Shown: positions 7,908 to 10,904, numbered from the stretch's first letter. The stretch: 64,000 nucleotides of DNA from Saccharofermentans sp. (GCA_016292135.1 JAEFAZ010000010.1:7560-71559); one strand, 5' to 3'. Notes: generated from the sequence alone by a model not told the origin. Made by a program: numbers and translations.

Positions 7908-10904
7908 TTAATAATCGCCACCATATGTGGTGCCCTTGGTCGTCGTATCCTTGGTCGTATCCTTGGTCGTGCCCTTTGTAGTGCCCTGAGTCGTTGACCT
8001 TGTAGTCGACCTTGTCGTGGACCTTGTAGTGGATCTGGTTGTATGTCTTGTCGTTCTTCTCGTTGTGTGACGAGCCGTTGTGGTAGCCTTGGTGGTTGCC
8101 TTAGTCGTGGTCGTCGCCTCTTCGGTAGAAGTCGTAGTCGTTGTTTCATCCTCCGTTGTCGTAGTAGGCTCCTCCGTAGTAGTGGTGGTAACCTCCTCTG
8201 ACTCGGTCGTTGTCGATTCATCAGTGGTGGTAGTGGTCGTCACTTCTTCCGTTGTTGTGGTCGTTGTGCTTGAATCAACGGGAGCCTGCCTCCTGCCTAC
8301 ACTGTTGGCTATAACAAATATGCCGACGATTATCAGAAGAACAAGGAAAGTGATGACGGCTTTTCCTGCTCCTGATTTGAGGAAGTTAAGGAATTTATTC
8401 TCTTCCTTATACTGGTCATTGCTGAGAAGGAATCCGTCAGACAATCTATCATTGCTGCCCTTCTGGGAAGCAACGGTCGAAGAAGCTCCTCCGCTTCTTG
8501 CCCATGCGGTTGAATTGACCTTGGAATCCGATGCGCTTGCAGCAGGTCTGAAAGGAGAATTTGAATCAACTTTATTTGCTGCTGTGTTATCCTTTGCAAC
8601 TGCTGCTGCAGTCTTGGGAGCGAGCTTGTTTTCGGCAGGCTTATTGGGAGCCTGCTTGACTCCTCCCTTAGGAGCGAATCCGGGAGCCGTTGTAACGGTC
8701 TTGCTTTCAGCAGGTTTTGTCCCTTTGCCGTCTGCTTTTGCAAGTCTTGCAGCCATTGCAGATGTTCCGGCAGCCTGTACCTTCTTATCTGCGGGCTTAT
8801 TCTCCTTGGCCTCGGTCCTTGCGAGTCTTTGAGCCATTGCAGATGCTCCGACCTGCTCTTCTGCTGCTTTCTTGGCATCTTCCTTAGCCTGTTCTGCCTT
8901 CAGCATCGCAACAGACTGAGCAGGTTTTCCGGCTGTTCCGGTAGCCTTGGATGTAACAGGCTTATTCGCAGCAGTAGGCTTAGCGGCGGCTGCTGCAGGT
9001 CTTGTTGCTTCCTTGGCAGGAGCCTTGGCGGGCTGCTTAGCTGCATTTGCATTTGATAAGGGCTTAAACGGAGAATTAGCGTTATCAGCAGGCTTGGCAG
9101 CTTCAGTGTTGCCCAAAGGCTTGAAAGCTACATTGGGCTTAGGCTCATCAGCTTTCGGCTTCTCGGTCTTTGCCAGAGGCTTGAACGGAGAATTATCCGC
9201 AGGAGCTGCAGAAGCAGCAGTTTCCTGCTTTGCCAAAGGCTTAAACGGTGAGTTGGAATTATCTGCAGGTCTGCCTTCAGCTGATACCAGAGGCTTGAAC
9301 GGAGAATTTGCATTATCCGCGGGCTTTGCCGTATCTGAACTGCCCAAAGGCTTAAACGGTGAATTGGAATTGTCCGCAGGCTTGCCTTCGGCTGATACCA
9401 GAGGCTTGAAAGGAGAATTTGCATTGTCCGCAGGCTTTGCCGTATCTGAACTGCCTAAAGGTTTAAACGGTGAATTGGAATTATCCGCAGGCTTGCCTTC
9501 AGCAGATGCCAGGGGCTTGAACGGAGAATTAGCGTTATCAGCAGCCTTTGCCGGATCTGAAGCAGACAAGGGCTTAAACAGCGGATTTGTCTTTTCCTTA
9601 GGCTTGCTGTCGTTAGCAACGCCCAAAGGCTTAAAGGGTGAATTGGAATTATCTGAAGTTGTTGTATCAGCCTTGGCAAGAGGCTTAAACGGAGAATTGG
9701 AATTATCCGCAGGCTTCGTATCCTGAATCGCTCCGGGTCTCGAAGCGGCTGCCTTGAAAGGTGACTTCGTGTCATCAGCAGCTTTTGCCAAAGGTTTAAA
9801 AGGCGAATTACCGTCGCCCGATGCAGCCGATGCAAGAGGCTTGAACGGCGAGTTGGAATTGTCAGCCGGTTTCGGATCGGCAGATGCTGCCGGCTGGATT
9901 ATTGCTGCCTTAAACGGAGAATCCGGATTATCTGAGAGCTTTGCGGATGCGGCAGGTTTGAAAGCAGAGGTCGCCGGCTTAAACGGAGAATTAGCGGCGG
10001 CAGCTGCTCCGGCAAGACCTGCAGCCGCTGCGCCTGTCGCTGCGGCAACATTCTGGCTGCCTTCGGGAAGGAGTTTCTTAAGATCAGTATTCATCTTGGA
10101 AGCCGACAGATATCTCTTGTCGGGATCAGCATTACAAGCATTGCTGATGATGGCATTGAACCTTACTCCGCCTTTTGCCGAAGAATTGAAAGCTTCTCCG
10201 GCCATTCTCTTGGCAAGAGCATTCTTAAGATCATCTGCTGTAAAGTCTTCGGGATCATGAGGAAGGAAGGGTCCCCTCTTTCCGTTCAGCTGAACATAAA
10301 GGACCATTCCGAGCGAATAAAGGTCATCCAGGTTATCTAATATCTGTTCATCTTTTGCTTCCGGAGGACAGTAATCCATCTTGTCGGGAGCGCCTGAAGA
10401 ACCGATGATCTTGGCGATCTCGACCGTTCCGAAATCACCTAATGTGAAAGAACCCTTATCGTTAAGGAAGATGTTTGAAGGCTTGATAGCGCCATGCTTG
10501 ATGTTCTTGTATTCACAGAATTCGAGAGCAGATGAGATGTCAGCGCCTAACTTAGCTACCTCATCCCTGTCGAGTTCACGTCCCTGAGCATAAGCTGCAA
10601 GAGTCTGACGGAAAGGCATCTTGATCAGTACATCTGCTGATCCGTCAGGATTATCGATGCGGGATATCTCATTATCAATGAAAACATTTTCGTTTCCCTT
10701 GAGGACGTCAGACTTCTTAACTACTTCAACAACCTCATCAGCCGTGGAAGAATCTTTTGTATGGATCACCTTCATCGCTGCCTTGCCGGCTGAAACGGAA
10801 TCGGTAATCTCATATACTGTGCCGCAAGAACCGGCACCGATCGCGGACTTAACGGTCCAACCGCCGAAAAACGGTCCCTTTGCTTTGATTTCGTTAATAT
10901 CCAT
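7908..10904 (-). CDS. Membrane-anchored Hanks-type Ser/Thr kinase-like protein (predicted pseudokinase) with repeat linker and Thr-rich tail
   Basis: GAGSCGTV G-loop, AAMK, HGAIKPSN, DFG, YCPPE, DLYSLG; one TM segment (AVITFLVLLIIVGIFVIA). Confidence 0.88.
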   Translation of the reverse strand: MDINEIKAKGPFFGGWTVKSAIGAGSCGTVYEITDSVSAGKAAMKVIHTKDSSTADEVVEVVKKSDVLKGNENVFIDNEISRIDNPDGSADVLIKMPFRQTLAAYAQGRELDRDEVAKLGADISSALEFCEYKNIKHGAIKPSNIFLNDKGSFTLGDFGTVEIAKIIGSSGAPDKMDYCPPEAKDEQILDNLDDLYSLGMVLYVQLNGKRGPFLPHDPEDFTADDLKNALAKRMAGEAFNSSAKGGVRFNAIISNACNADPDKRYLSASKMNTDLKKLLPEGSQNVAAATGAAAAGLAGAAAAANSPFKPATSAFKPAASAKLSDNPDSPFKAAIIQPAASADPKPADNSNSPFKPLASAASGDGNSPFKPLAKAADDTKSPFKAAASRPGAIQDTKPADNSNSPFKPLAKADTTTSDNSNSPFKPLGVANDSKPKEKTNPLFKPLSASDPAKAADNANSPFKPLASAEGKPADNSNSPFKPLGSSDTAKPADNANSPFKPLVSAEGKPADNSNSPFKPLGSSDTAKPADNANSPFKPLVSAEGRPADNSNSPFKPLAKQETAASAAPADNSPFKPLAKTEKPKADEPKPNVAFKPLGNTEAAKPADNANSPFKPLSNANAAKQPAKAPAKEATRPAAAAAKPTAANKPVTSKATGTAGKPAQSVAMLKAEQAKEDAKKAAEEQVGASAMAQRLARTEAKENKPADKKVQAAGTSAMAARLAKADGKGTKPAESKTVTTAPGFAPKGGVKQAPNKPAENKLAPKTAAAVAKDNTAANKVDSNSPFRPAASASDSKVNSTAWARSGGASSTVASQKGSNDRLSDGFLLSNDQYKEENKFLNFLKSGAGKAVITFLVLLIIVGIFVIANSVGRRQAPVDSSTTTTTTEEVTTTTTTDESTTTESEEVTTTTTEEPTTTTEDETTTTTSTEEATTTTKATTKATTTARHTTRRTTRHTTRSTTRSTTRSTTRSTTQGTTKGTTKDTTKDTTTKGTTYGGDY
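9061..9995 (-). repeat. Coding tandem repeats (K)PADNxNSPFKPL, including a 111-bp higher-order unit
   Basis: About 15 SPFK copies plus FKP variants; ttaaacggtg recurs at 9241, 9352 and 9463 (111-bp period). Confidence 0.95.

Follow-up and report, generated by a model that had tools for sequence, protein, structure and literature searches.

What does a short phenylalanine-centred peptide, repeated 19 times along a single bacterial pseudokinase, do for the cell? The question is raised by a gene in a 64,000-nucleotide stretch of Saccharofermentans sp. DNA (GCA_016292135.1, JAEFAZ010000010.1:7560-71559), hereafter the window; the genome of the window is designated G000, and proteins and loci of relatives carry P and L numbers. 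The product of this gene, 998 amino acids (aa) long, carries 18 motifs of the SPFKP type in a low-complexity linker and a nineteenth nearer the C-terminus, and the same motif was found on unrelated proteins of the same genus. The motif is probably a protein-docking tag. The reading we favour, with no better than even confidence, is that of a multivalent docking platform: the array, built from a lineage-specific, Phe-centred short linear motif (SLiM), would bind one conserved receptor in the cytoplasm. The gene and its motifs are located as follows.

7908-10904, minus strand: coding sequence of 998 aa, from the open reading frame (ORF) list and its translation, with orthologues in genomes G185 (locus L037) and G174 (locus L045).
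9057-9989, minus strand: main array of 18 copies of [S]-[P]-F-K-[P]-[L/A], aa 306-616, from the translation and a shuffle control.
8544-8558, minus strand: distal motif NSPFRPA standing alone, aa 783-787, kept in the orthologues (as GSPFRPAAS in L037).

Most copies in the array take the form (K)PADN(S/A)NSPFKPL and stand between low-complexity spacers of ~13 aa; the motif-unit peptide is written (ADNSNSPFKPLGS)n, and one or two motif units are exemplified by KPADNSNSPFKPLGSSDTAKPADNANSPFKPLVS. The linker count comprises 15 SPFK (13 SPFKP, 12 NSPFKPL), one SAFKP, one PLFKP and one VAFKP, and the distal SPFRP brings the total in the protein to 19, in agreement with the about 19 SPFKP-type motifs that an earlier reading of the DNA without database searches (the sequence-only reading) had placed at 9061-9995. 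The string PF[KR]P was present in 14 of the 19 motifs (13 PFKP and 1 PFRP), the rest being SAFKP, PLFKP, VAFKP and two SPFKA. Ser occupied position -2 relative to Phe in 17 of 19, and the position following Phe was Lys in 18 copies and Arg in one. The distances from Phe to Phe were 7, 16, 23, 15, 14 and 23 residues, then 18-20 residues eleven times. All 18 Phe residues between aa 300 and 620 lie inside a motif, and FKP occurred 16 times in the linker, whereas 200,000 composition-preserving shuffles gave it 0.33 times on average and never more than 4 times. Pfam and NCBIfam gave no match over aa 300-620, Pkinase being the only family to match the protein. In the library searched, no paper had SPFKP, or any of five longer variants, as a peptide motif, and a general search on bacterial SLiMs brought up nothing relevant. 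The sequence-only reading had likewise recognised no described repeat family, and no earlier description appears to exist of the motif, of its network across the genus or of its display in 19 copies on a bacterial pseudokinase.

Part of the array is a tandem repeat at the DNA level. Tandem Repeats Finder reported a period of 111 bp (3.0 copies, 89% matches), nested in a 54-bp period of 8.7 copies.

9233-9561, minus strand: three tandem 111-bp (37-aa, two-motif) units, from Tandem Repeats Finder.

Each 37-aa unit has ~27 synonymous and 84 non-synonymous sites. The units at aa 455-491 and 492-528 showed 12 synonymous and 1 non-synonymous codon differences, and those at aa 485-521 and 522-558 showed 7 and 2, respectively; the ratio of non-synonymous to synonymous substitution rates (dN/dS) between internal units was ~0.03. 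Phe was encoded by TTT in 10 motifs and by TTC in 9, Ser by three codons, Leu by four and Pro by three, and at the DNA level the motif has no fixed word of more than 5 nt. The codon comparison showed purifying selection on the protein, not on the DNA, for the motif, and the three 111-bp units are under strong purifying selection along their entire length. About 0.3-0.45 differences per synonymous site have built up between units, so the 111-bp expansion is not recent; the RUI411 orthologue (Saccharofermentans sp.) also has the 111-bp two-motif unit, in 1.9 copies, and the third species' orthologue has a 108/213-bp version of it. The sequence-only reading had described the 111-bp period and its synonymous differences correctly and had erred in calling the expansion recent. 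A DNA-level origin of the repeats, as a repeated word, an uptake or methylation tag or a mobile cassette, was considered separately and rejected because the motif codons all vary synonymously, and also because the spacers are wholly different between carrier families.

From N- to C-terminus, the protein consists of a Hanks-type pseudokinase, the motif-array linker, a helical or low-complexity middle, one transmembrane (TM) helix and a Thr-rich ectodomain.

10101-10856, minus strand: protein-kinase fold, aa 17-268 (Pfam Pkinase, 4.2e-20).
8739-8843, minus strand: second conserved linker motif, (G)[AT]SAMA[QA]RLA[RK], two copies, aa 688-695 and 715-722.
8370-8438, minus strand: juxtamembrane segment DGFLLSNDQYKEENKFLNFLKSG, conserved in P0020, L037 and L045.
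8295-8369, minus strand: single TM helix, aa 846-870 (Kyte-Doolittle maximum 2.9 at aa 849).
7911-8288, minus strand: Thr-rich ectodomain, aa 873-998, with no folded domain (translation; Pfam matches sub-threshold and spurious only).

The catalytic loop reads KHGAIKPSN in translation, with HGA where HRD is expected, and HGAL, HGAI and HGNI were read at this position in orthologues. The kinase domain lacks the catalytic Asp and is a pseudokinase. The linker, ~320 aa of low complexity, is composed to 76% of A, P, S, K, N and D and contains no W, Y, M, C or H; aa 846-870 is the sole hydrophobic segment of the protein, and the N-terminus is the kinase fold, without a signal peptide. These features agree with the disordered cytoplasmic linker proposed at first reading. 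An AlphaFold2 (AF2) single-sequence model of aa 1-640 showed no secondary structure at 302-640 and was poor overall (predicted local distance difference test, pLDDT, 38), lending disorder weak support at most. The SAMA[QA]RLA[RK]-type motif has three copies in G174, and unrelated FKP carriers of one family (L028, L030, L031) have the similar FDAMEARLK.

We then ask whether the array is kept between species. Among 100 species representatives of the genus surveyed, the pseudokinase was found in only three, and these make up the orthologue comparison.

G000 (window): 998 aa, 19 motifs.
G185, locus L037 (Saccharofermentans sp. RUI411): 969 aa, 18 motifs.
G174, locus L045: 1053 aa, 18 motifs.

Although units have been gained, lost and independently duplicated within the gene, the motif counts differ little, and the comparison of predicted proteins showed that ~18-19 copies are kept across the three species carrying the gene. 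Against L037, the kinase domain was 81% identical and the array 60% identical with 68 gapped positions, which add or remove whole units; within the array, 86 of 108 motif positions (80%) and 107 of 213 spacer positions (50%) were identical. A more distant syntenic orthologue from a metagenome, P0020 (49% identity; gene order Band_7_1, kinase, ferredoxin, POR), is considered below. In G169, the closest species representative (GlgC 99% identical), contigs end exactly at both flanking genes (the end of C15, L044; C39:208), and the repeat-rich gene probably lies in a gap of this metagenome-assembled genome (MAG); absence calls for such repeat genes are therefore unreliable. As a separate observation, the Thr-rich ectodomain was 94% identical to that of the RUI411 orthologue in protein and 92% in DNA, and the kinase domain, at 81% and 79%, was less conserved than its own ectodomain. 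Gene conversion, recent exchange or strong constraint are possible explanations of this odd gradient in a low-complexity region.

The motif extends beyond the pseudokinase. A search with the linker retrieved proteins with unrelated N-terminal parts and the same motif in different spacers, for example AAEPSPFKPLGS. A two-motif profile matched only 6 clusters among 1.84 billion (1.84e9) representative proteins. Arrays were present in 22 of 301 genomes of the order, all of them in one of 51 genera (Saccharofermentans, 22 of 100 genomes), and were not found with this profile in the 50 other genera of the order. The array-bearing species were scattered through the genus rather than gathered in one subclade, as judged from GlgC identity, a crude proxy. 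These profile searches showed the motif to be confined to the genus Saccharofermentans, whose carriers share it as a genus vocabulary. A scan anchored on F, with the next two positions restricted to [KR] and [PA], collected 256 unique motifs outside the window with the following profile, each position being tallied separately.

Position -2: S 75%, N 11%, G 6%.
Position -1: P 84%.
Position 0: F (scan anchor).
Position +1: K 91%, R 8% (scan limited to [KR]).
Position +2: P 93%, A 6% (scan limited to [PA]).
Position +3: A, L, I, F or M.

The consensus is [S/N/G]-[P/I/V/A]-F-[K/R]-P-[L/I/V/A/F]. Among the aligned motifs, Ser-Pro is replaceable and F-[KR]-P is not, F having been anchored and the +1 and +2 residues pre-restricted in the scan. 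The motif occurs, singly or in arrays of up to ~21, on disordered tails regarded as cytoplasmic in about 10-12 unrelated protein families, including the following.

MLYSETN-domain family (P0002-P0019), with up to ~21 motifs.
Family ending in a SHOCT domain (P0004, P0011).
Mac/hexapeptide acetyltransferase fusions (P0095, L011, L026).
Several families with one or two N-terminal zinc ribbons (P0097, L023, L032-L036).
Polytopic membrane and zinc-ribbon family, as two tandem paralogues (P0098, L027).
2-TM protein ending in two ribbons.
Fully disordered protein (P0096).
L029.
Family with a folded N-terminal enzyme-like domain.

In at least 9 families only 0-3 residues follow a closing ...[SG][PL]F[KV]P[LIF], which often takes the form ...SPFKPL. 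The carriers include Cys4 zinc ribbons and an acetyl-CoA-type transferase without a signal peptide, which speaks for a location in the cytoplasm. Pfam gave no match for the arrays of the other carriers or for their N-terminal domains, and these N-terminal domains had no homologue in G000 except the acetyltransferase, which is tailless there. The selection on a short linear motif that the sequence-only reading had proposed is borne out both by the variation of the motif codons and by the same motif having been built independently into ~10 unrelated proteins. Several array carriers (L011, L022, L023, L026, L035; P0002, P0097) also share [KV]LPQR[ST][DE]S.N.[YF] and GSLGSLGS-type Ser/Gly runs before the final FKP motifs, and these extra shared strings suggest a composite tail module.

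In G000 the array is unique to the pseudokinase, and three other membrane proteins carry single or few motifs. All four carriers are membrane proteins in which the motif lies in the part without a signal peptide and without a Thr-rich stalk; from these features, the motif-bearing parts are taken as cytoplasmic disordered regions. One of them is a 152-aa protein with one TM helix and the tail ...NTQSPFKPL, whose family is present in 65 of the 100 genus genomes. A tail of the form [GSPQ][PIVA]F[KR]P[LVY] was found near the C-terminus in 20 of 30 loci of this small protein, after a conserved EFEEWEK; it is mostly G-[VI]-F-K-P-L, and SPFKPL also occurs. The F-[KR]-P-hydrophobic core is therefore old and genus-wide, and Gly-Val or Gly-Ile can stand in for the Ser-Pro of the window version. 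In every one of the 30 loci examined (L046-L075), the small protein is encoded directly downstream of a 404-aa membrane protein with three zinc ribbons.

G000 C12:186844-188521, outside the window: two-gene module of the 404-aa protein and the small TM protein, 4 bp apart.

In the 404-aa protein (G000 C12:187307-188521), which is well conserved at 59-80% identity, three zinc ribbons at the N-terminus are followed by a beta-rich middle (YIPYW) and then by two TM helices at the C-terminus. Its homologues are all named 'hypothetical protein' bar one with the JGI label 'ribosomal protein S27E', and two further paralogues are present in G000 (C12:461735-464614).

Another G000 carrier is a 787-aa type-II membrane protein (C8:209988-212351) with a disordered N-terminal region of ~590 aa, taken as cytoplasmic. 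It carries SAFKPL, GVNAFKPV and NPAFKPA together with four N-terminal [KR]L[FY]G[SAV][DNE] motifs, which resemble FLFGDD and FMFGKD in the FtsZ tail of G000 and may be a second class of tail-mimic motif. Mimicry of a housekeeping-hub tail by the FKP motif itself was rejected: when the C-termini of all G000 ORFs were scanned, the small TM protein and a weak LPFKG (RnfC-like) were the only matches, and the FtsZ tail of G000, which ends ...KPWFMFGKDNNQN, differs from the motif.

How could such a motif act? If the array is a docking platform, each copy would be the ligand of a single conserved cytoplasmic receptor pocket: Phe would sit in a hydrophobic pocket, and Lys or Arg would meet an acidic contact. 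The peptide would be held in a turn or a polyproline II conformation by its flanking prolines (P-x-x-P) and its S/N/G cap, as in NPF for EH domains. The 19-copy pseudokinase would then be a high-avidity membrane scaffold, or a sink, for the receptor, and the scaffold would set the receptor beside a partner of the dead kinase domain. The NPF and DPF/W arrays of Eps15, epsin and AP180, which bind EH domains and AP-2 appendages, offer a parallel in that many copies of a Pro-Phe-centred motif lie in a long disordered region, the motif is common to many unrelated network proteins and the action is membrane-proximal. In contrast to these, the array described here is bacterial and limited to a single genus, and its core is F-[KR]-P after S/N/G-P; N-P-F-[KR] accounted for ~11% of the motifs in other carriers and for none in the window, so that Asn-Pro-Phe is not the core. 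The PxxP core with a flanking basic residue of SH3 ligands is present at the sequence level only, as the P-F-[KR]-P string counted above. The resemblances to the NPF/EH turn and to PxxP are to be read as analogies, not as membership. Bacterial hub-docking tails (D-D-D-I/L-P-F of SSB, the FtsZ C-terminal peptide, SspB XB/ClpX and the GpsB-binding motifs of penicillin-binding proteins) are also short peptides that end a disordered tail, often at the extreme C-terminus, and are common to several clients; they are single-copy, phylum-wide and of other sequence, whereas the motif here is genus-restricted and reaches 19-21 copies.

The sole receptor candidate with circumstantial support is the tandem zinc-ribbon module, which we regard as a weak lead. 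Zinc ribbons occur in cis in 4 of the ~12 carrier families, and a multi-ribbon protein is encoded immediately upstream of both G000 FKP genes, the array gene and that of the small tail protein; among ~2,157 ORFs of G000, CxxC...CxxC occurs at least once in 3.7% and at least twice in 0.5%. The neighbour of the array gene is an SPFH protein, separated from it by the following elements.

11124-12506, minus strand: Band_7_1 (SPFH) protein with three C-terminal zinc ribbons (Pfam Band_7_1, 4.2e-10), upstream neighbour.
11075-11100, minus strand: strong intrinsic terminator with an 11-bp stem, 7 G-C pairs and a T7 tail, ending the upstream SPFH gene.
10947-10975, minus strand: promoter-like site TTGTAA-17-TATATT, 5' of the ribosome-binding site GGAGGA and ATG (consensus match only).

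The terminator and the promoter-like site lie between the two genes, and the pseudokinase gene is therefore its own transcription unit. The SPFH gene is syntenic with the pseudokinase locus also in L014 and L037. In a bolder version, which we consider unlikely, F-[KR]-P would be the ligand of tandem zinc-ribbon modules in a eukaryote-style multivalent SLiM network in the Saccharofermentans cytoplasm. The partners would be the SPFH three-ribbon protein, the 404-aa three-ribbon protein and the ribbons fused to array carriers; multivalent ribbons and FKP arrays would form membrane-proximal scaffolds or condensates organising surface-protein complexes, with the dead kinase as the hub of highest valency.

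Several observations weigh against a docking platform or against its candidate zinc-ribbon receptor. The purifying selection covers the spacers of the 37-aa unit too, and the functional element may exceed the 6-residue core. The sequence-only reading had held that the motif is kept while the spacers drift; this stands for the comparison with RUI411 and fails inside the 37-aa unit, where the spacers are constrained. P0020 has no array, only one NSPFASAII, which matches DSPFKAAII of the window, and two NVPSGIF, so the array is not needed for basic pseudokinase function and is an elaboration within one small clade rather than intrinsic to the pseudokinase. On the question raised at first reading of whether orthologues keep the FKP motif, the two close orthologues do, with 18 copies each, and P0020 does not. 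Arrays are present in only 22 of 100 species, on differing carriers, and are evolutionarily labile. The zinc-ribbon association is post hoc, and a tendency of Firmicutes proteins to have N-terminal zinc ribbons before long disordered regions confounds it. The AF2 model of the 404-aa protein was moderate (pLDDT 66), and a Foldseek search with it gave no PDB match at E <= 0.001; single-sequence AF2 of the pseudokinase was uninformative, and no receptor was found. The SPFH neighbour lies in a separate transcription unit and is present in 93 of 100 genus genomes, against 3 of 100 for the pseudokinase. The sequence-only reading had named the SPFH protein among the neighbours to screen; these last two points do not support it as a privileged partner, and as a receptor candidate this neighbour is speculative.

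Of the rival explanations, self-association comes first, though we hold it doubtful. As in FG-nucleoporins, Phe, with Lys through cation-pi contacts, would act as the sticker in a sticker-and-spacer chain, so that linkers of adjacent molecules and the other tails with the motif merge into a membrane-proximal gel or condensate without any dedicated folded receptor. Phe is the sole hydrophobic or aromatic sticker, recurs every 18-20 residues between polar, uncharged-to-neutral spacers and is common to many unrelated proteins; Phe-centred variants (PGLFKP, GVNAFKP, KLFG) occur, and the valency of 18-19 is conserved. In FG-nucleoporins, too, single Phe residues recur at regular intervals between polar low-complexity spacers 10-20 residues long, and valency is high. 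However, in the window Phe is followed by Lys or Arg in 19 of 19 motifs, not by Gly, and no Phe-Gly core was found, KLFG-type motifs being restricted to the other G000 protein; the spacers here include charges, and the array is tethered to a membrane protein and not to a pore. Lys or Arg and Pro after Phe, with S/N/G-P before it, are a stricter pattern than generic cohesion would lead one to expect, single C-terminal copies are hard to account for by cohesion alone, and a density of one Phe per 18 residues is weak for stickers.

Rather improbable is a post-translational modification array, in which Ser phosphorylation by an active Hanks kinase, or modification of Lys or Pro, would switch binding or charge. 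It is generally known that S-P-x-K fits a proline-directed consensus and that the juxtamembrane linkers of Hanks kinases (PknB, PrkC, StkP) are autophosphorylation or docking regions. G000 encodes other kinase homologues (C8:429548-430369, C8:504718-505374, C7:46686-47111), and Lys or Arg is kept in all 19 window copies, with Lys at 91% in other carriers in a scan that required K or R. A phospho-acceptor should be the most conserved position, yet Ser is the least constrained of the core, and the phospho-array is disfavoured for this reason: ~25% of motifs have N, G or A in its place, and the genus-wide small protein has G there. The invariant Ser/Thr of a CDK/MAPK-type site, [ST]-P-x-[KR], was absent (S in 75% of the 256 motifs), and the CDK-type phospho-array of the sequence-only reading finds no footing here or in the small protein, which is mostly G-V/I-F-K-P-L. 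Thr, moreover, is the main target of bacterial Hanks kinases, which are not known for proline-directed activity, again as general knowledge, and FHA domains read phospho-Thr, not phospho-Ser. In PknB, PrkC and StkP, as in the protein described here, the linker is disordered and joins the kinase domain to the only TM helix, and a docking role has been proposed there; their linkers are ~50-70 aa long, non-repetitive and tied to phospho-Thr and FHA, whereas here the segment is ~550 aa with a 19-copy motif and the catalytic Asp is lost. The C-terminal domain (CTD) of RNA polymerase II is likewise a multivalent, Ser-Pro-containing, disordered display, but it is a contiguous 7-residue repeat with a phosphorylation code, and here a 6-residue motif with a dispensable Ser recurs every 18-20 aa with variable spacers. 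The label 'CTD-like' given at first reading does not suit a 5-6-residue motif set in ~13-residue spacers without any contiguous short heptad-type repeat.

A degradation or adaptor tether is very unlikely. C-terminal FKPL tails and the arrays would be recognised by an AAA+ unfoldase of the ClpX type, through its zinc-binding N-domain, or by another protease adaptor; the carriers would be marked for regulated turnover, and the array would be a competitive sink. The SspB XB tail on the ClpX N-domain is, by general knowledge, a precedent for a zinc domain reading a C-terminal peptide, and in at least 9 families the motif strongly favours the extreme C-terminus. Against this, the motif is unlike known ClpX-recognition or XB motifs, no link between ClpX and these genes was found here, and a degron needs no 19 internal copies.

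Barely credible is neutral low-complexity expansion, with replication slippage amplifying an SPFKP-containing unit in a linker that is a mere flexible spacer: the tandem 54/111-bp periodicity, the gain and loss of units between species and the array-less P0020 fit it, but the low dN/dS between units, the synonymously diverse motif codons with no fixed DNA word and the same motif in different spacers on ~10 unrelated families, plus single conserved C-terminal copies, do not.

Two further observations concern the locus itself. On the strand opposite to the gene, ORFs at 8947-9726 (plus strand, 259 aa) and 8080-8832 (plus strand, 250 aa) encode GLNGELELSAG-type repeats; these are repeat shadows and not genes. 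By their coordinates, glgC and the SPFH gene lie ~8.3 kb apart in G000 and ~5.3 kb apart in G175:C8, and from this the pseudokinase gene is inferred to behave as a 3-kb insert that is present or absent while the rest of the glgC...POR...SPFH locus is conserved.

Multivalent SLiM arrays in disordered regions are well known in eukaryotes, where they are a hallmark of cell organisation in endocytosis, nuclear pores and signalling scaffolds, and single-copy tail motifs are known in bacteria. To our knowledge, such arrays have rarely been documented in bacteria beyond single-copy hub tails (SSB, FtsZ, clamp). For annotation, repeat genes of this type break MAG assemblies, as at the G169 contig gap. 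The FKP motif offers a compact and tractable case, with a sharply defined motif, ~12 carrier families, a one-genus boundary and valencies from 1 to ~21. Knowing its receptor would assign a role to 'hypothetical' disordered proteins in an abundant rumen genus, would reveal what a bacterial pseudokinase scaffolds, and would test avidity- or condensate-type organisation at a Gram-positive membrane.

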